A DNA stretch of 64,000 nucleotides from the NCBI RefSeq assembly GCF_057098645.1, contig NZ_CM169472.1. The stretch is one strand, 5' to 3'. Within the stretch, counting starts at the first letter, position 1. The number at the start of each line of letters is the position of its first letter. The notes under the pieces are model-generated. The model ran no database searches and was not told where the DNA came from. It was given only the letters and a program-made list of their open reading frames with translations. The position numbers and the translations under genes were made by a program. Shown piece after piece: positions 33,731 through 58,543 of the stretch.

Positions 33731-33931
33731 TTCCATTAACCGCCCCTGACGATGCTCAGGGGCAAAAATGTTATCCACATCACAATTTCGTTTTGCAAAT
33801 TGGGAATGTTTGCAATTATTTGCCACAGGTAACAAAAAACCAGTCCGCGAAGTTGATAGAATCCCATCATCTCGCACGGTCAAATGTGCTTTTTCAAACA
33901 CTCATCCGCATCACGATGTGAGGAAATTAAC

Positions 33932-35188
33932 ATGAATCTTAAGCTGCAGCTGAAAATCCTCTCTTTTCTGCAGTTCTGTCTGTGGGGAAGTTGGCTGACG
34001 ACCCTCGGCTCCTATATGTTTGTTACCCTGAAGTTTGACGGTGCTTCTATTGGCGCAGTTTATAGTTCACTGGGTATCGCCGCGGTCTTTATGCCTGCGC
34101 TGCTGGGGATTGTGGCCGACAAATGGTTAAGTGCGAAATGGGTATATGCCATTTGCCACACCATTGGCGCTATCACGCTGTTCATGGCGGCACAGGTCAC
34201 GACGCCGGAAGCGATGTTCCTTGTGATATTGATTAACTCGTTTGCTTATATGCCAACGCTTGGGTTAATCAACACCATCTCTTACTATCGCCTGCAAAAT
34301 GCCGGGATGGATATCGTTACTGACTTCCCGCCAATCCGTATCTGGGGCACCATCGGCTTTATCATGGCAATGTGGGTGGTGAGCCTGTCTGGCTTCGAAT
34401 TAAGCCACATGCAGCTGTATATTGGCGCAGCACTTTCCGCCATTCTGGTTCTGTTTACCCTGACTCTGCCGCATATTCCGGTTGCTAAACAGCAAGCGAA
34501 TCAGAGCTGGACAACCCTGCTGGGCCTCGATGCATTCGCGCTGTTTAAAAACAAGCGTATGGCAATCTTCTTCATCTTCTCAATGCTGCTGGGCGCGGAA
34601 CTGCAGATTACCAACATGTTCGGTAATACCTTCCTGCACAGCTTCGACAAAGATCCGATGTTTGCCAGCAGCTTTATTGTGCAGCATGCGTCAATCATCA
34701 TGTCGATTTCGCAGATCTCTGAAACCCTGTTCATTCTGACCATCCCGTTCTTCTTAAGCCGCTACGGTATTAAGAACGTAATGATGATCAGTATTGTGGC
34801 GTGGATCCTGCGTTTTGCGCTGTTTGCTTACGGCGACCCGACTCCGTTCGGTACTGTACTGCTGGTACTGTCGATGATCGTTTACGGTTGCGCATTCGAC
34901 TTCTTCAACATCTCTGGTTCGGTGTTTGTCGAAAAAGAAGTTAGCCCGGCAATTCGCGCCAGTGCACAAGGGATGTTCCTGATGATGACTAACGGCTTCG
35001 GCTGTATCCTCGGCGGCATCGTGAGCGGTAAAGTTGTTGAGATGTACACCCAAAACGGCATTACCGACTGGCAGACCGTATGGTTGATTTTCGCTGGTTA
35101 CTCCGTGGTTCTGGCCTTCGCGTTCATGGCGATGTTCAAATATAAACACGTTCGTGTCCCGACAGGTACACAGACGGTTAGCCACTAA
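33932..35188 (+). CDS. nupG: Nucleoside:H+ symporter
   Basis: MNLKLQLKILSFLQFCLWGSWLTTLGSYMF..., 418 aa. Confidence 0.93.
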   Translation: MNLKLQLKILSFLQFCLWGSWLTTLGSYMFVTLKFDGASIGAVYSSLGIAAVFMPALLGIVADKWLSAKWVYAICHTIGAITLFMAAQVTTPEAMFLVILINSFAYMPTLGLINTISYYRLQNAGMDIVTDFPPIRIWGTIGFIMAMWVVSLSGFELSHMQLYIGAALSAILVLFTLTLPHIPVAKQQANQSWTTLLGLDAFALFKNKRMAIFFIFSMLLGAELQITNMFGNTFLHSFDKDPMFASSFIVQHASIIMSISQISETLFILTIPFFLSRYGIKNVMMISIVAWILRFALFAYGDPTPFGTVLLVLSMIVYGCAFDFFNISGSVFVEKEVSPAIRASAQGMFLMMTNGFGCILGGIVSGKVVEMYTQNGITDWQTVWLIFAGYSVVLAFAFMAMFKYKHVRVPTGTQTVSH

Positions 35189-35200
35189 TTACGCAAAGAA

Positions 35201-35231
35201 AAACGGGTCGCCAGAAGGCGACCCGTTTTTT
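35201..35231 (+). terminator. Intrinsic terminator downstream of nupG
   Basis: aaacgggtcgccagaaggcgacccgtttttttt hairpin plus T-run. Confidence 0.85.
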
Positions 35232-49850: not shown

Positions 49851-50177
49851 ATGACTAAAAATACTCGTTTTTCCCCTGAAGTCCGTCAACGGGCAGTCCG
49901 TATGGTTCTGGAAAGTCAGGGCGAATATGACTCACAATGGGCGACAATTTGTTCCATTGCTCCAAAGATTGGCTGTACGCCGGAGACTCTGCGTGTCTGG
50001 GTTCGCCAGCATGAGCGGGATACCGGGGGCGGTGATGGAGGGCTCACCACCGCTGAACGTCAGCGTCTGAAAGAGCTGGAGCGTGAAAATCGTGAACTGC
50101 GCCGCAGTAACGATATCCTTCGCCAGGCTTCCGCTTATTTTGCGAAGGCGGAGTTCGACCGCCTCTGGAAAAAATGA
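49851..50177 (+). CDS. IS3-family transposase OrfA
   Basis: 108 aa, [35 protein letters not shown]... Confidence 0.85.
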
Positions 50178-51064
50178 TGCCACTGCTGGATAAGCTGCGT
50201 GAGCAGTACGGGGTCGGACCGCTATGCAGCGAACTGCATATTGCCCCGTCAACGTATTACCACTGTCAGCAACAGCGACATCATCCGGATAAACGCAGTG
50301 CCCGTGCGCAGCGCGATGACTGGCTGAAGAAAGAGATACAGCGCGTATACGATGAAAATCACAAGGTATACGGTGTGCGTAAAGTCTGGCGTCAGTTGTT
50401 ACGGGAAGGTATCAGAGTGGCCAGATGCACTGTGGCACGTCTCATGGCGGTTATGGGACTTGCCGGTGTTCTCCGGGGTAAAAAGGTCCGTACGACCATC
50501 AGCCGGAAAGCCGTTGCCGCAGGCGACCGCGTAAACCGTCAGTTCGTGGCAGAACGACCTGACCAGCTGTGGGTGGCTGATTTTACTTACGTCAGCACAT
50601 GGCAGGGCTTCGTCTATGTGGCGTTCATCATTGATGTGTTTGCCGGATACATTGTGGGGTGGCGGGTCTCATCGTCCATGGAGACGACATTCGTGCTGGA
50701 TGCACTGGAGCAGGCGTTATGGGCCCGTCGACCGTCCGGCACGGTCCATCACAGTGATAAAGGTTCTCAGTATGTATCGCTGGCCTACACACAGCGGCTT
50801 AAGGAAGCCGGATTACTGGCATCAACAGGAAGTACAGGCGACTCGTATGACAACGCGATGGCGGAGAGCATCAATGGTCTTTACAAAGCGGAGGTAATAC
50901 ACCGTAAGAGCTGGAAAAACCGTGCAGAAGTGGAACTGGCCACACTCACGTGGGTGGACTGGTATAACAATCGACGATTGCTGGAAAGGCTGGGCCATAC
51001 TCCTCCGGCAGAAGCAGAAAAAGCTTATTATGCTTCCATCGGAAACGATGATCTGGCAGCCTGA
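50174..51064 (+). CDS. IS3-family transposase OrfB
   Basis: 296 aa, DDE domain. Confidence 0.85.
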
Positions 51065-51106
51065 GTTCACAGATAAAACACTCTCCAGGAAACCCGGGGC
51101 GGTTCA

Positions 51107-52391
51107 TTTTTTCCTGACGCTTGCCGAGTCCGGAGAACGAAAAACCGCAGTGGACAAATTATTAATGAAGCCCCTGTACCAGCAGGAGATGCAGTTATAT
51201 TCCAGATACAAAAGTGAACTGGCTGTCTGGAAAAACAAGGAAGAGCTTTTAAAGGCTCAGAAAAAAGCATTGTTGTCAAAACTGAATAAAGAACTCCGCA
51301 AAGGCGCGGATGAGTCAGAAACCCTCAGACAACTGGAAGTACTTCAGAAAAACAGTGCGGAAGAACCTGTGAGGTATAAATTCATTTTTAATGATGCCAC
51401 GACTGCGGCAATTAAGAATCAGCTTTGTGGTAAATGGCGTTCAGTGGGTATTATGTCAGATGAAGCCGGTATTATATTTGATGGATATACCCTGTCTGAG
51501 TTGCCTTTTATTAACAAAATGTGGGATGGCTCTGTATTGTCTGTGGACAGAAAGAATGAACCCGAACAGATGATTGAAAATGCCAGAATGACGTTATCCC
51601 TCATGGTGCAACCAGGTCTTTTTGACCGATATATGGAGCGAAAAGGTTCTGTTGCCAGGGACAGTGGTTTTCTTGCCCGTTGTCTTATCAGTAAACCTGC
51701 AACCACGCAGGGGAAACGCTTTATTAACGGAGCTGTGATTCCGGGAGGATCATTAACGGCATTTCATGAACGATTAATGGAACTGGCCAGAGGCAGTATT
51801 GAAAAATCCAGTGAGGATGAACGGTATTGTCTGCATTTTTCGCCTGAAGCGCAAAAAATATTTATTGAGCACTATAATGTTCTGGAGCAGGATTTATCCC
51901 CTTCCGGACCCTTAAGCCCGTTTCGGGGACATGTTTCAAAAAAAACAGAAAACATTGCAAGAATTGCAGCGTTATTTCAGTATTTCAGCTATGGTGAAGG
52001 GAAAATCTCTGCCGATATCATGACGTCTGCTGTCGTAATAAGTTCGTGGTACACAGATGAATATAAAAAATTATTTGCGTTACCTGATGAATCTGAACTG
52101 CAGCAGAAGGACGCCGAGGAGCTGTTCGACTGGCTCATTGAGGAGTGCCGCGGAGAATGCCCGCCCCGTGTCAGGAAAAATTATATTCTCCAGTGTGGCC
52201 CGGGCTGGTTCAGAAACAGGAAAAAACTGAACGCATTGCTGAACATTCTTGAATCTCAGTTCAGGCTTTCTGTCGTGCCGGAAGGAAAAACCATGTATGT
52301 TCTGCTTCCCCAGATAGCCAGTTTAAAGTTGTCTGATGTCTCTGGTATTTTTACCTCGGGTTATCACTACAATAAGCTGAGAGCGAAGTAA
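51107..52391 (+). pseudogene. DUF3987/YfjI-like protein (P4-like island gene), 5'-truncated by the IS insertion
   Basis: The long ORF 50922-52391 begins inside the IS and has no start of its own downstream of the IS end; roughly 428 codons resemble the YfjI/DUF3987 family as I recall it. Confidence 0.5.
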
Positions 52392-52450
52392 CCGGTGAGC
52401 AGTTTTTCTCCATTATGCTTCAGACTTAGATGATTGATTATTATGGGGAT

Positions 52451-52490
52451 TTCATCACCGATATTCAGATGTATGAATATCGGTGATGAA
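52451..52490. promoter_or_regulatory. Perfect 17-bp inverted repeat with 6-bp spacer (operator- or terminator-like)
   Basis: ttcatcaccgatattca-gatgta-tgaatatcggtgatgaa, read directly from the sequence, between the DUF3987 remnant and the convergent hypothetical gene. Confidence 0.5.
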
Positions 52491-52712
52491 CTAAAGCTCA
52501 GGAGCTGCGTGGTGGTGATGAATCAACAGGCATATAACTGATACCCGCCGGTCAGAAGTTCCAGCCTGCGACTTTCCTGTCTGCGTGCCCGCAGTCCGGC
52601 GTTCAGGTGCAGCGTGTGACAGAACGCACGGAGAGCGAAACGGCAGGCAGACAGGCCGTTCAGTCAGCCCTGGCACCCTGCCCGGATACCAGCTTCCCTG
52701 AAACAACTGGCA

Positions 52713-53321
52713 TCAGGTGCGCTTATCGTCAACCGTTGTGCGGTATGCCAGGAGCACGTACTGATCCATCAGATCCGTCAGTGCTGCGCTCTGCTTCTGA
52801 CGGTTGATGATCCATTCCTCCAGCTCTTTTTCTGATTTCCGTTTCAGATTCTCCGTCCAGTCGTCAAGGCAGTTTCCGGTCATTAAATCAAGCCAGCAAA
52901 GCCAGACCAGTTTGAGGCGCAACTCCGTGCCACCAAACTGACGGAAGAGGCTGATCAGTTTATTTGCCAGCGAACGCTGCCTCAGACGTTCACATTCAGA
53001 CAGGAGAATGCCTTCCAGCATCGGATGATGAACCAGCAGATGTTCACTGGTGCATAAATTCACTATCAGATCATCATCCAGGGGCGGCGTGGTCCGTTTG
53101 TCCGGACCATAAATCAGCCGGTGCAGACTCTGGGGTACGATGGCAATCTCCGGTTTTTCACCATTGAATGACACCCACCCGGGCGTCAGATTATGGAAGT
53201 AGTAGATATTCGGATGACACACGCCCCAGGATACGGCGTGCCGGGTGAAGCCGGTCAGCCATTTCTGGTAGCTTTCGTGGAGCAGCTCGTAACGGGTCTG
53301 ATACTGTGGTTTCATTTTCAT
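52713..53321 (-). CDS. Hypothetical protein (P4-like island), downstream of the alpA-like gene
   Basis: ORF 52713-53462; probable start at MKMKPQYQTRYELL (ATG 53321, preceded by a GAGGA Shine-Dalgarno); no family recognised. Confidence 0.5.
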   Translation of the reverse strand: MKMKPQYQTRYELLHESYQKWLTGFTRHAVSWGVCHPNIYYFHNLTPGWVSFNGEKPEIAIVPQSLHRLIYGPDKRTTPPLDDDLIVNLCTSEHLLVHHPMLEGILLSECERLRQRSLANKLISLFRQFGGTELRLKLVWLCWLDLMTGNCLDDWTENLKRKSEKELEEWIINRQKQSAALTDLMDQYVLLAYRTTVDDKRT

Positions 53322-53401
53322 ATTCCTCACGGGGGATAACAGGCAGCAGAACGCCGCCGGCAGGCCGGAGACTGCGTCTGCTGCAGATGAACGGTTAAGA
53401 A

Positions 53402-53608
53402 TTACGGACGGGACTGTGCAATACGCGCCTGCAGCCAGGCTTCCACTTCGCTTTTCAGCCATCGGGAGCTGCGGCCCATTTTGATGGGCGCAGGAAAGTC
53501 ACCATCCTTGATGAGTTTGTAAAACCACTTATCGGTCAGGCCGGTCAGTTGAGTGATAAATGCCATGTCGACCATCTGGTCATCCATCAGTGAAACTGGG
53601 GTGATCAT
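53402..53608 (-). CDS. AlpA-family phage/island transcriptional regulator (excisionase-like HTH)
   Basis: ...MAFITQLTGLTDKWFYKLIKDGDFPAPIKMGRSSRWLKSEVEAWL... matches the AlpA/Phage_AlpA pattern; exact start ambiguous among several in-frame ATGs. Confidence 0.7.
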   Translation of the reverse strand: MITPVSLMDDQMVDMAFITQLTGLTDKWFYKLIKDGDFPAPIKMGRSSRWLKSEVEAWLQARIAQSRP

Positions 53609-54255
53609 GAGAATGTTCCTCCGGATGTTGTTAAACCAGCCGGTGTGGTCATGAAAACAACGCACCACCTTCACCGGCATAACAACCGGGGAGAAACGTA
53701 AAAAATAATCGGGAATGTGACCGCCAGGAGATAAACGGGGAGGTTACGGTGGCTGAGCCGTACCGGTATGCCGGGTGGTTGTTACGAAACGATGCTTCCG
53801 CACGCGCGCGCGATAAAGAAGGGATGATTTTCGTGAGGAAGAGGGGAAAACTGGCGTTCTGATAATTGCAGAGTTATTTACGGGGCGGTTACGATGGGGC
53901 AGACCGTGTCCGGTGGGCAGGCGACAGGTATCACCGATGGGATAAGACTGTCTGATTGGTATTATAAATATATAAGAGAGAGCAAACACATGAGATCAAA
54001 TACATGAGTTCATATATGTGAAATAAACACGGTGAGTGTGATCAGTGGGCATGTGCAAAATGGCATCTGAATCGATCGCAGTTTGGCATTCGAATCGATC
54101 ATGATTTGGCATCCATCTCCGATCACAGTTTGGCATCACAATCGATCACGATTTGGCATGCTTCCGATCATTGATTGGCATCCTGCCAGTCACTCCGGGA
54201 ATTAACTCTTTTCACCACAGTCTCCATTGCCGTGTTTAAACCAGTGGAGACGTCA

Positions 54256-55821
54256 ATGTCCAGAAAGAGAAAATCCAGGAGCACTATGGAAACCTGTTTT
54301 AAGATCCTTCAGCTCAAGTTCGACAAGAAGCTGACTAACCGTTGTATCGGACTGACGTTACACATCAGCGCCTCAACCGTTTTTGAGGTTCTTGCCCGCT
54401 TCAAAGCCTCTTCTCTGTCATGGCCATTACCTGCTGATATATCCCATGACACGCTGGAGAAACTCATTTTTCCGCCCAAAGACACCTTTGCATCAGAGCT
54501 TGTAATGCCTGACATGTTGTACTTCGATACGGAAATGAGAAAACCAGGTGTGACGCGGCAACTGTTGTGGATGGAATACAAGGCACAGGCGGGTAACAAA
54601 GCGATGGGATACTCGCACTTCTGCCGTTGCTACCGGGAGTGGAAAAAAACGCGACGTCTCTCCATGCGCCAGGAGCATCGTGCCGGCGAAAAGCTTTTTA
54701 TCGACTTCTGTGGTCCTACGGTTCCTGTTATTAATCCGGACACCGGTGAGATACGCCGCGTGGCAATCTTCGTGGCCGTAATGGGGGCGTCCAACTATAC
54801 CTACGTTGAAGCGTGCGAAGGTCAGGACATGATGTCATGGTTAAATGCCCACAGCCGTTGCCTGACCTTCCTGGGCGGCGTACCGAAGCTGCTCATCCCC
54901 GATAACCTCAGAAGCGCAGTGAAAAAGGCCGATCGATATGAGCCTGTCATCAACGACAGTTATCAGGCACTGGCTGAGCACTATGGCACGGTTATCATCC
55001 CGGCCCGACCACGCAAACCTAAAGATAAACCAAAAGCAGAAAACGGCGTCCTCATCGTTGAACGATGGCTTCTTGCCCGCATCCGTAATGAAACCTTCCA
55101 CACGCTCAGGGCGCTGAATGCGCGCCTTAGGGAGTTACTGACAGACATGAATAACCGGCCAATGAAGGGGTACGGCAATCAAACCCGTGCAGAACGCTTC
55201 CGCATACTGGATGCGCCAGCACTCTCTCCGCTGCCTCTGGCACCTTATGAATACACGGAATACAAAGCTGTGAAGGTTGGCCCTGACTACCACGTTGAAT
55301 ATGCCCGTCACTGGTACTCCGTTCCACACGAACTGGTCGGTCAGCGTCTGTCACTGAAGGCGGGGCAGTCGGTGGTACAGCTCTGGCACAAGGGGCAGTG
55401 TGTGGCGCAACATCCGCGCAGCACACATGAATATAAACACACAACCAATCCGCTTCACATGCCAGAGCGCCACCGGCAGCACGGGACATGGACACCGGAA
55501 CGCCTGATCGAGCAGGGAAAACGTACGGGCCCGTCCACAGGCCGGGTGGTTGAATCCATGCTGAAGGCAAAACCCCATCCGGAACTGGCTTATCGTGCAG
55601 TTCTGGGGCTGCTGGCACTTCAGAAAAAATACGGCCCGGAACGGCTGGAAAAGGCCTGTTACGTTGCCCTGCACTATAACGCCCCTGACAGACGCTTTAT
55701 CGACAATCTGCTGCGTCACCATCGGGAGAACCTGGAGCTTCCATTATCCCGCCAGGGCGAACAACATCCGGCATATGCTTCAGAGCATGAAAACCTGCGT
55801 GGTCCGGGCTACTACCACTGA
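54256..55821 (+). CDS. istA: IS21-family transposase IstA
   Basis: 521 aa from MSRKRKSRSTMETCFKILQLKFDKKL...; HTH plus DDE domain. Confidence 0.8.
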   Translation: MSRKRKSRSTMETCFKILQLKFDKKLTNRCIGLTLHISASTVFEVLARFKASSLSWPLPADISHDTLEKLIFPPKDTFASELVMPDMLYFDTEMRKPGVTRQLLWMEYKAQAGNKAMGYSHFCRCYREWKKTRRLSMRQEHRAGEKLFIDFCGPTVPVINPDTGEIRRVAIFVAVMGASNYTYVEACEGQDMMSWLNAHSRCLTFLGGVPKLLIPDNLRSAVKKADRYEPVINDSYQALAEHYGTVIIPARPRKPKDKPKAENGVLIVERWLLARIRNETFHTLRALNARLRELLTDMNNRPMKGYGNQTRAERFRILDAPALSPLPLAPYEYTEYKAVKVGPDYHVEYARHWYSVPHELVGQRLSLKAGQSVVQLWHKGQCVAQHPRSTHEYKHTTNPLHMPERHRQHGTWTPERLIEQGKRTGPSTGRVVESMLKAKPHPELAYRAVLGLLALQKKYGPERLEKACYVALHYNAPDRRFIDNLLRHHRENLELPLSRQGEQHPAYASEHENLRGPGYYH

Positions 55822-55837
55822 CAGAAGGAACAACAGT

Positions 55838-56593
55838 ATGAGTGATAACCTGTTAAACAAACTGACCCAACTGAAACTCCCGGCGATGGCCGGGAGCCTG
55901 ATACGGCAGCGGGAAACGCCTCAGACCTACGACGAACTGTCGTTCGAGGAAAGGCTGACGCTGCTGGTTGATGACGAGCTTCTGAGCAGGGAAAACAGCC
56001 GTGTGGCACGGTTGAGAAAAAATGCCGGCCTGAAATACCAGGCAACACCGGAAGGGCTGCGCTATCCGGCCTCAAGAGGTCTGCGGGCTGAACAGATGAG
56101 AGAACTGCTGAACGGCCACTACATAACCCACAGGAAAAACCTGCTGATAACCGGTCCGACAGGATGTGGCAAGAGCTGGATAGCCAATGCGCTGGGCGAA
56201 CAGGCATGTCGACAGAAACACAGCGTCCGGTACTGTAGAACCGGGCGATTACTGGAACAACTGGCTCAGGGACGTGTTGATGGCAGCTGGCTGAAATATC
56301 TGAAACAGTTGCAAAAAATACAGGTTCTAATCCTGGACGATCTGGGGCTGGAACAGTTAAGTAACGCCCAGTGTAATGACCTTCTGGAGCTCATAGAGGA
56401 TCGTTACGGACAAAGCAGCACGATAGTGGTAAGCCAGTTCCCGGTAGATAAATGGCATGGTCTGATGGAGAACCCAACAACAGCAGATGCCATCCTGGAC
56501 AGACTGGTACATAACTCACACCGAGTGGTCCTTCAGGGAGAGTCACTGAGGAAAAATCCCCCGGTAGTGGAAAGCAGCGAAAAAACGCGTTAA
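55838..56593 (+). CDS. istB: IS21-family helper ATPase IstB
   Basis: MSDNLLNKLTQLKLPAMAG...; Walker A GPTGCGKS; AAA+ IstB-like. Confidence 0.85.
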   Translation: MSDNLLNKLTQLKLPAMAGSLIRQRETPQTYDELSFEERLTLLVDDELLSRENSRVARLRKNAGLKYQATPEGLRYPASRGLRAEQMRELLNGHYITHRKNLLITGPTGCGKSWIANALGEQACRQKHSVRYCRTGRLLEQLAQGRVDGSWLKYLKQLQKIQVLILDDLGLEQLSNAQCNDLLELIEDRYGQSSTIVVSQFPVDKWHGLMENPTTADAILDRLVHNSHRVVLQGESLRKNPPVVESSEKTR

Positions 56594-57568
56594 AAAGCGG
56601 TAGAAAAAGTTAAGTTCCCGGTTGATCGAATGGATGCGAATCGCTGATCGGACTTCGATGCCAATCCGTGATCGAATAGAGCGGAATACGCAGGCATGAT
56701 GAGAACGCAGTAGCAACAGACTGCGCTATCCCTGATAGCTGGCGTATAACCTGCGTATATAAAACGTACCAGCAACGCACGTGAACAGAGTGCATTAAGC
56801 ATCCGTCGTTGACACCGACCTGGTGAGTGACAGTCTGAGAGACCGGTTAAGTGGTGGTACGGGAGTAATGAGTTTGGGGAGGGTACCAGAATGTCAGTCT
56901 GGTACGGTATGCTGACAGTATCACGTTAATTGCAGCATAAAGTGATGAGAGGCTAATGGAAGTTAAAACCAGAGCAGTTCCGTCGTTGTTCATCCCGGGA
57001 GACACTGGAAAAAGTGATTTCCCACACGCGTTATAAGCTTACTCTAGCGGAGATGGAAGCCTTCAACTCTGCGGTCGATCACCGACTGGCAGAACTGACA
57101 ATGAACAAGCTTTACGATCGTGTTCCCGCTTCAGTCTGGAAATATGTCATCTGAGCGTTCGGTAATCACAACTGCATCGCGCCAGGTGTTATCCGCTTTG
57201 TGATTCTTATTGGCTCTTCTCAGGTTATTAAAAGCTGAATATGTTCCTGTTGTCGGGAACCAGGATAATACCGGGAACGTTAAGCGGTATAGCGACAACA
57301 AAGAATTCGAAATCAAAAGGGAATGGTGCCGGAGGCGTGGGCGGTAATGGGCTGATTTTCAGGTATTACCGGCTTACAGCGTGTGGTTGATATTGAGGGG
57401 CTGTGAGTTTCACGTATTTGTCAGAAACCCAGACGAGTTTTCCTGTATGAGACGAAATAAGGCAGCGGCAATACATGGAAAAATTTAATATGCTATGAAG
57501 GAGAACCTGTCGGTTACGCTTAATATAACCGGTACACTGTCAGCTCAGGGGATACATGAACCGTTATC

Positions 57569-57973: not shown

Positions 57974-58543
57974 ATGACCTACAAATACAACCCCTTCTGG
58001 CAGCAACGTATTCGTGAGACGGTGCGGCACGCACTGGATGTTCATCCCCGCCTGACGGCATTGCGGGTTGATCTGCGTCTCCCGGATGTACCGGCAGCAA
58101 CGGACGCGGCTGTGATATCCCGCTTCATCAATGCCCTGAAAGCCCGAATCGACGCTTACCAGAAACGTAAGCATCGGGAAGGTAAACGCGTGCATTCCTC
58201 GACCCTGCATTACGCCTGGGCCCGGGAGTTCGGGGAGCTTAAAGGCAAAAAACACTATCACCTGCTGCTGCTGGTCAACCGGGATACCTGGTGTCGTGCC
58301 GGCGATTACCGCGCTCCGGGGTCACTGGCCGGAATGATTAAACAGGCCTGGTGCAGTGCCCTGGGGGTGGATGCCGGATGTTATGCCACGCTGGTGCATT
58401 TTCCGGTCAGGCCGGCGGTGTGGCTGGAACGCGATGATGAAACCGGCTTTCAGCAGGTACTGGAACGTGCTGGCTATCTGGCGAAGGAGCATACCAAAGC
58501 TCGCGGCACCGGTGAGCGCAACTTTGGCTGTAGCCGGAGTTGA
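57974..58543 (+). CDS. YagK/YfjJ (inovirus Gp2-like) family protein
   Basis: 189 aa; N-terminal MTYKYNPFWQQRIRETVRHALDVHPRLTALRVDLRLP resembles the YagK/YfjJ family found in CP4-type islands (from memory); Shine-Dalgarno present. Confidence 0.5.
   Translation: MTYKYNPFWQQRIRETVRHALDVHPRLTALRVDLRLPDVPAATDAAVISRFINALKARIDAYQKRKHREGKRVHSSTLHYAWAREFGELKGKKHYHLLLLVNRDTWCRAGDYRAPGSLAGMIKQAWCSALGVDAGCYATLVHFPVRPAVWLERDDETGFQQVLERAGYLAKEHTKARGTGERNFGCSRS

Follow-up and report, generated by a model that had tools for sequence, protein, structure and literature searches.

The locus was analysed within a window of 64,000 nucleotides, by which we mean the whole stretch of DNA under study. A perfect palindrome occupies the space between a remnant of yfjI on the plus strand and, on the minus strand, a hypothetical gene (hyp1) situated downstream of alpA. 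Part of this space, together with the end of yfjI, forms a segment that varies between islands and is referred to below as the cassette. The features from yfjI to alpA are as follows.

51104-52391, plus strand: remnant of yfjI (DUF3987 helicase family), truncated at its 5' end, identified by homology to intact yfjI
52330-52539, plus strand: variable cassette, comprising the last ~20-25 codons of yfjI and the 3' flank including the palindrome, delimited by alignment; its left breakpoint is approximate (~52310-52340)
52451-52467: left arm of the palindrome, TTCATCACCGATATTCA, from reading of the sequence and a repeat finder
52468-52473: spacer or loop of the palindrome, GATGTA (6 nt), from reading of the sequence, the repeat finder and folding
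52474-52490: right arm of the palindrome, TGAATATCGGTGATGAA, from reading of the sequence and the repeat finder
52518-52539, minus strand: remnant of a hyp2 gene of CFT073 type, covering its 3' end (...LYAC*), with its TGA stop codon at 52523-52525 on the minus strand
52540-52712, minus strand: G+C-rich 3' flank of hyp1, common to islands without yfjI and the palindrome
52713-53315, minus strand: hypothetical gene downstream of alpA, hyp1 allele, 200 aa
53402-53608, minus strand: AlpA-family helix-turn-helix (HTH) gene (PF05930)

Genes and mobile elements around the palindrome

Assignment of the remnant to YfjI/DUF3987 was based on a Pfam match of the intact homologue (3.6e-95) and on the PHROG annotation 'DNA helicase'. 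Homology to intact yfjI begins at 51104, at about codon 66, where it adjoins an IS3-family element; the first ~66 codons and the promoter have been lost at this insertion. The yfjI stop codon lies at 52389-52391 and the palindrome begins 59 nt further on. On the other side, 222 nt separate the palindrome from the stop codon of hyp1, the 200-aa product of which was not assigned to any family in Pfam, NCBIfam or PHROG, and the AlpA-family gene is ~900 bp from the palindrome.

Beyond alpA, an IS21-family element (54054-56692, with istA/istB-like ORFs at 54175-55821 and 55595-56593) splits the region upstream of alpA from the part of the island that carries hha and YagK/YfjJ. Island homology resumes at 56693, and a YagK/YfjJ C-terminal-domain protein (RefSeq 'inovirus Gp2 family') is encoded at 57974-58543 on the plus strand. 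On the yfjI side, a tRNA-Phe gene at 38585 precedes a P4-type integrase (38858-40120), after which comes a complete iron-dicitrate operon resembling fecIRABCDE (41280-48825). The whole is a composite island, in which a fec-carrying island at the phe tRNA site is joined by IS elements to the remnant of an AlpA/YfjI island. Matches to the ALIL pseudoknot, a frameshift element of the IS3 family, at 5367-5483 (minus strand) and 50132-50248 (plus strand) mark two copies of one IS3-family element, inverted and ~45 kb apart, that bracket the tRNA-Phe gene, the integrase and the fec operon. The segment between these inverted copies is possibly composite or invertible, and it is the right-hand copy that truncates yfjI at 51104. 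An Rfam match to the sRNA ES036 (CssrF) was present at 6791-6833 on the minus strand (53.5 bits, against a gathering score of 37.6).

The two arms of the palindrome, each of 17 nt, were 100 % complementary according to the repeat finder. Among perfect inverted repeats with a loop of up to 20 nt in the window it was the longest, followed by repeats of 14 nt and 11 nt, both at terminator-like sites, and the longest inverted repeat to arise in 60 first-order Markov simulations of the window measured 12 nt. RNA of the palindrome was predicted to fold at -27.6 kcal/mol on the plus strand and -25.4 kcal/mol on the minus strand (z = -7.7 and -6.5, respectively), with none of 200 shuffles folding as well; as single-stranded DNA, the value was -17.1 kcal/mol. 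The G+C content of the stem was 35 %. A first-pass annotation had described a perfect 17-bp inverted repeat with a 6-nt spacer, longer than expected by chance, between the DUF3987 remnant (plus strand) and the hypothetical gene downstream of alpA (minus strand), and had proposed RNA folding as a check. The repeat, its rarity and its context were all confirmed by our analysis, and folding returned a strong hairpin on both strands. A literature search for the palindrome sequence found no paper that contains it. We conclude that the palindrome is real, non-random and not previously described, and that it is of an ordinary kind, namely a hairpin present in single copy between two converging genes.

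Distribution and mosaicism of the island

A 421-nt query around the palindrome matched 1,179 of 5,426 complete E. coli genomes, with an identity of 99 % or more in 1,172 cases. All matches were chromosomal and all carried the annotation pair 'YfjI family protein' and 'hypothetical protein'. The palindrome-bearing island was present in about 1,178 of the 5,426 genomes, about a fifth. BLAST searches with a 60-nt core, which is its own reverse complement and is therefore counted twice per copy, placed one copy in each island and none elsewhere, with some genomes containing two or three islands. Phage records yielded no match to the palindrome, nor did genuine plasmids, the three 'plasmid' matches being records of 1.4-4.9 Mb, i.e. 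chromosomes. A scan of viral contigs with GATATTCA-N6-TGAATATC gave 108 matches, of which the true 40-mer was found in one contig (L095) and the others were due to chance. Rfam, run on the whole window at gathering thresholds, reported no RNA family at the palindrome; a known RNA family was also sought by a permissive scan of 52200-54200 and rejected, the output being noise (snoRNA models, E = 0.4-4.4). The first-pass annotation had advised a search for the palindrome elsewhere and had named membership of a known repeat family as grounds for abandoning its reading. Given a single copy per island, always between yfjI and hyp, the negative searches of Rfam and of phage and plasmid records, and one copy among viral contigs, the palindrome is not a member of a repeat family, and a dispersed extragenic repeat (REP/BIME, ERIC or MITE) or the end of a mobile element is ruled out.

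Intact islands carrying the palindrome encode AlpA, Hha, YagK/YfjJ, YfjI, a GTPase and Ag43. They begin with Ag43 and the GTPase gene, both directed leftwards, and continue with 1.2 kb of AT-rich DNA, yfjI directed rightwards, the palindrome, and then hyp and alpA directed leftwards; further on, hha, YagK/YfjJ (again annotated 'inovirus Gp2 family') and zinc-ribbon genes are directed rightwards. From this order it follows that yfjI converges on an alpA-hyp operon and that the palindrome lies in the convergent spacer. In strain 510016 (NZ_CP025851), which has an intact island, the palindrome is at about 2,462,340-2,462,380. The ~1.2-kb AT-rich, ORF-free region between the divergent GTPase and yfjI genes (9440-10607 in the intact island L001) has the appearance of a sizeable regulatory or silenced stretch; in the window it has been lost to the IS.

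At least ~809 genomes, of types CFT073, TUM1880 and E9 and including ATCC 25922 and ST131, carried a sister cassette. YfjI in these sister islands is 88-90 % identical up to about residue 470, after which the last ~25 codons and the 3' flank are replaced. In the same position as the palindrome (type 1) they harbour a G+C-rich hairpin that is unrelated to it in sequence (type 2; CCGTCACCC / GGGTGACGG), ~45 nt past the yfjI stop and ~39 nt past the stop of hyp2, an allele ~35 % identical to hyp1. Protein identity between type-1 and type-2 islands was 94-97 % for AlpA, 84-91 % for YagK/YfjJ and 88-90 % for YfjI. Each hairpin type was observed beside either hyp allele, the type-1 palindrome with hyp1 in the window and with hyp2 in the metagenome contig L171, and the type-2 hairpin with hyp2 in CFT073 and with hyp1 in TUM1880. 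Hairpin type was inherited with the last ~25 codons of yfjI, and not with alpA or the hyp allele, a linkage that physical proximity alone would explain.

Contig L171 displayed the complete arrangement, in which the yfjI stop is followed by 59 nt, the palindrome, a further 33 nt and the hyp2 stop, within a convergent spacer of 134 nt. This is the ancestral arrangement, and the palindrome originally lay 32-33 nt past the hyp2 stop. In the window, the remaining piece of hyp2 is fused at the junction 52539/52540 to sequence from just past the end of hyp1, the resident allele; this relic and the L171 arrangement together identify the 222 nt between palindrome and hyp1 as secondary mosaicism. Near-coincident illegitimate junctions were found in the spacers of several islands (~52540 in the window, ~52544 in L002 and ~52603 in TUM1880), alongside a 22-nt deletion variant in L165. 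The 190-200-aa protein encoded downstream of alpA has two alleles (52713-53315, minus strand, in the window; 5269-5841, minus strand, in L022) that have been shuffled independently of the neighbouring genes. Two small ORFs in the spacer were considered and rejected. One of 32 aa, from an ATG at 52444 to a TGA at 52542, is frame-shifted by a 1-nt insertion in the STEC1575 allele, and the other, of 71 aa on the minus strand (52491-52706), spans a mosaic junction not present in either L171 or CFT073.

Pair changes and rival explanations

Folding on both strands was predicted for each of the seven haplotypes of the two types, with energies of -16.5 to -26.3 kcal/mol for the plus strand and -13.7 to -25.5 kcal/mol for the minus strand. 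Each type displayed a single compensatory change, from C-G to T-A in STEC1575 (type 1) and from C-G to A-T in strain E9 (type 2). Three one-sided C to T changes retained a U·G pair in the yfjI-sense RNA only, a strand bias of 3/3 (p ~0.125). Across the five type-1 haplotypes, one pair was changed on both sides, a level of covariation reached by 199 of 500 shuffles, and a metagenome variant carried an A·A mismatch at this 'compensated' pair. Polymorphism was assessed in 70 natural copies, comprising 65 metagenome loci anchored on the upstream flank and 5 further copies. Two singleton variants in this sample each break a pair, and SNP density in the arms was not clearly below that of the flanks, the lack of a depletion signal being attributable to copies that are almost all identical. 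The CFT073-type hairpin was matched in folding by 9 of 48 segments of its local background. Statistical support for a structural role from the pair changes is weak. We also considered, and rejected, a conserved hairpin after every yfjI: at 16 loci from other Enterobacterales, with yfjI homologues of ~50 % identity, the repeats were weak, AT-rich and unexceptional against the local background. The gene downstream of these homologues is co-directional with yfjI. Absence of a remarkable hairpin at co-directional loci fits a role in convergent transcription, and would fit a lineage-specific accident equally well.

The main and serious rival to a hairpin acting at the transcript level is a neutral one, whereby replication template switching (quasi-palindrome correction) made and maintains the perfect repeat in a recombination-prone spacer, and the repeat, under no selection for function, is carried along by an island that is almost clonal. 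One template-switching event is able to yield both a perfect hairpin and pairs that look 'compensatory' (PMC8794818), and the palindrome resembles the products of such switching in having a perfect stem and a 'compensatory' change explicable by one such event. The perfection of the repeat is itself of little weight, since the region is at least 99 % identical in >99 % of the ~1,178 genomes. Polymorphism was not depleted in the arms, and the covariation test was not significant. The surrounding region is a patchwork of illegitimate junctions, and a further copy of the outer 9-mer of the arms, GGTGATGAA, lies at the relic hyp2 stop, 23 nt downstream, as local copying would have it. This 9-mer is present at 52451-52459 (minus strand), 52482-52490 (plus strand) and 52514-52522 (plus strand), giving three copies in 72 bp at intervals of 31-32 bp out of seven in the whole window, and is absent from the CFT073-type cassette; its copies may be a trace of how the palindrome originated, or may be iteron-like. 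However, template switching is a route of origin rather than a function, and it leaves unexplained why the sister cassette has a second, unrelated hairpin in the same position, also with a compensatory change; moreover, all haplotypes seen still fold on both strands. We regard a wholly neutral palindrome as a minority possibility, somewhat doubtful but deserving of weight.

Explanations that invoke recognition of the DNA by an island protein fared worse against the sister islands. The first-pass annotation had suggested a binding site for a dimeric regulator and had pointed to the AlpA-like protein. An operator for such a regulator (AlpA, the hyp protein or another HTH protein) would control the convergent genes, and the perfect dyad symmetry of the palindrome and the AlpA-family gene in its vicinity accord with this idea. 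Our results lend it no support, because AlpA is almost unchanged beside hairpins of unrelated sequence, both hairpin types co-occur with both hyp alleles, and the type of hairpin tracks the yfjI tail. Nor did the window, or the 12-24 kb searched of intact islands, contain a second site or half-site (up to 3 mismatches); half-sites of 17 bp far exceed what an HTH dimer needs, and the palindrome is sited at gene 3' ends and not at a promoter, with no promoter-like site nearby in our scan. An operator is accordingly improbable.

Still more improbable, in our judgement, is a cis-acting DNA hairpin for replication or recombination of the island, be it a tyrosine-recombinase core site or an origin or nick site on which the YfjI helicase and the Rep-like YagK/YfjJ protein would act. 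Several features speak for such a site. The gene immediately upstream of the palindrome encodes a DUF3987 helicase, a domain for which 5'-3' helicase activity in the replication modules of mobile genetic elements has been demonstrated by experiment (PMC11724360). The island YagK/YfjJ protein is similar to Rep ORF2/G2P, at a level below threshold (26.2 bits against a Pfam cut-off of 27.8), the 17-6-17 geometry corresponds to the inverted arms and 6-8 bp spacer of dif/lox-type core sites, and the three GGTGATGAA copies are regularly spaced. To our knowledge, and as judged by eye, the arms do not resemble the dif/XerCD consensus. Conservation of YfjI and YagK/YfjJ extends across islands whose hairpins share neither sequence nor loop motif: the loops GATGTA and CCGCTTCTGCATGA are unrelated, so that no nick motif co-varies with YagK/YfjJ as an HUH-type origin would demand. 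A single copy per island provides no partner for a core site, distant yfjI loci lack a conserved hairpin, and phage records and genuine plasmids contained no related sequence, the viral collection contributing the one exact copy mentioned above. Conservation of AlpA, YagK/YfjJ and YfjI beside unrelated hairpins, together with the absence of any other half-site, makes it unlikely that these proteins share an operator, origin or nick site recognized by its sequence. There are hints that the YagK/YfjJ protein and the DUF3987 helicase constitute a degenerate replication module in these islands. A more elaborate proposal, that the palindrome and the third GGTGATGAA copy 32 bp away form a vestigial cis-acting replication or processing site, with a hairpin recognized by the helicase or by YagK/YfjJ and allele-specific sites swapped along with the helicase C-terminal tail, strikes us as very far from probable; were it true, a very common E. 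coli island family would contain an unrecognized autonomous replication module.

A hairpin at the boundary of convergent genes

The first-pass annotation had alternatively proposed a bidirectional terminator, and had suggested terminator prediction as a check. In its favour are the convergent spacer, the hairpin encoded on both transcripts and the presence of another hairpin at the same place in sister islands. What did not hold is a terminator of the canonical kind: the palindrome has the stable stem-loop of an intrinsic terminator but lacks the U-tract on both strands, its stem being followed by CUAAAGCUC on the plus strand and AUCCCCAUAAUAAUC on the minus strand, its G+C content is low, and a consensus terminator scan did not report it. 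Hairpin-dependent bidirectional terminators lie between the 3' ends of convergent genes and encode a hairpin in the transcripts of both directions, and the palindrome shares both of these sequence-level features. A C-rich, G-poor stretch resembling a Rho-utilization site downstream was considered and rejected, as the composition profile contained no clear C>G bubble. The window also holds a textbook bidirectional intrinsic terminator at 35199-35230 (AAAAACGGGTCGCC-AGAA-GGCGACCCGTTTTT, with A5/T5 flanks), between convergent ORFs at 33884-35188 (plus strand) and 35238-37457 (minus strand). The two elements have in common a palindromic stem-loop between convergent genes; in contrast to the intrinsic terminator, the palindrome has no A-tract and T-tract flanks and no G+C-rich stem, and is not called by the scan.

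We consider it about an even chance (a probability of roughly 0.5) that the palindrome is a U-tract-less hairpin which, where the two convergent genes meet, pauses polymerase, terminates transcription or protects 3' ends. A role at the level of structure is favoured over an operator or origin for AlpA, YfjI or YagK/YfjJ because an unrelated hairpin occupies the same place beside proteins that are 84-97 % identical. On this structural reading, the palindrome would be a single-copy hairpin of the yfjI 3' flank in a widespread E. coli integrative island, where transcription of yfjI (plus strand) would meet transcription of alpA-hyp (minus strand) within a short spacer. As the palindrome is perfect, RNA arriving from either side would fold the identical 17-bp stem. 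The stem might then pause RNA polymerase and fix the point at which converging polymerases meet, as a 'collision-type' bidirectional terminator; alternatively, it might block 3'-to-5' exonucleases, such that 3' ends are defined and stabilized. In both versions, antisense read-through into the opposite gene would be limited. That the palindrome is transcribed, and that it pauses, terminates or stabilizes, we infer from its sequence and setting. In the window itself the element may be vestigial on the plus side, where the 5' end and promoter of yfjI have been lost to IS.

If the hairpin works as proposed, it would add one more U-tract-less boundary between convergent genes, in a horizontally acquired island that roughly one in five complete E. 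coli genomes carries, and would indicate that such elements are swapped as one cassette that includes the 3' end of the gene next to them. Its significance beyond annotation is small and it opens no new question; nonetheless, hairpin-dependent or collision-type termination could be examined cleanly in this natural setting, since the palindrome has a perfect 17-bp stem, lacks a U-tract and has a naturally occurring alternative in the second hairpin allele.

Two further known systems invite comparison. REP hairpins serve as 3'UTR terminators or attenuators and as mRNA stabilizers, including at convergent gene pairs (bioRxiv 10.64898/2026.03.23.713779). The palindrome is like REP/BIME elements in being an extragenic hairpin at gene 3' ends, between convergent genes and without a U-tract, and the same effects on read-through and mRNA decay are proposed for it. 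Unlike them, it is non-repetitive, with one copy per island and none outside the locus, and its sequence is unrelated. A second parallel is with the bidirectional terminators between convergent E. coli genes of Ju et al. 2019, which, as described in Wang et al. (bioRxiv 10.1101/2022.10.23.513370), are a prevalent, Rho-independent class distinct from intrinsic terminators. On the account given in that preprint, their RNA hairpin pauses polymerase, and head-on and trailing collisions release the transcripts. The palindrome differs from the terminators so described in lying within a horizontally acquired island, in its unusually long and perfect stem (17 bp) and in that one of its genes in the window has no promoter. 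What it shares with them, as far as sequence alone can tell, is the convergent spacer and an RNA hairpin on both strands without a U-tract.
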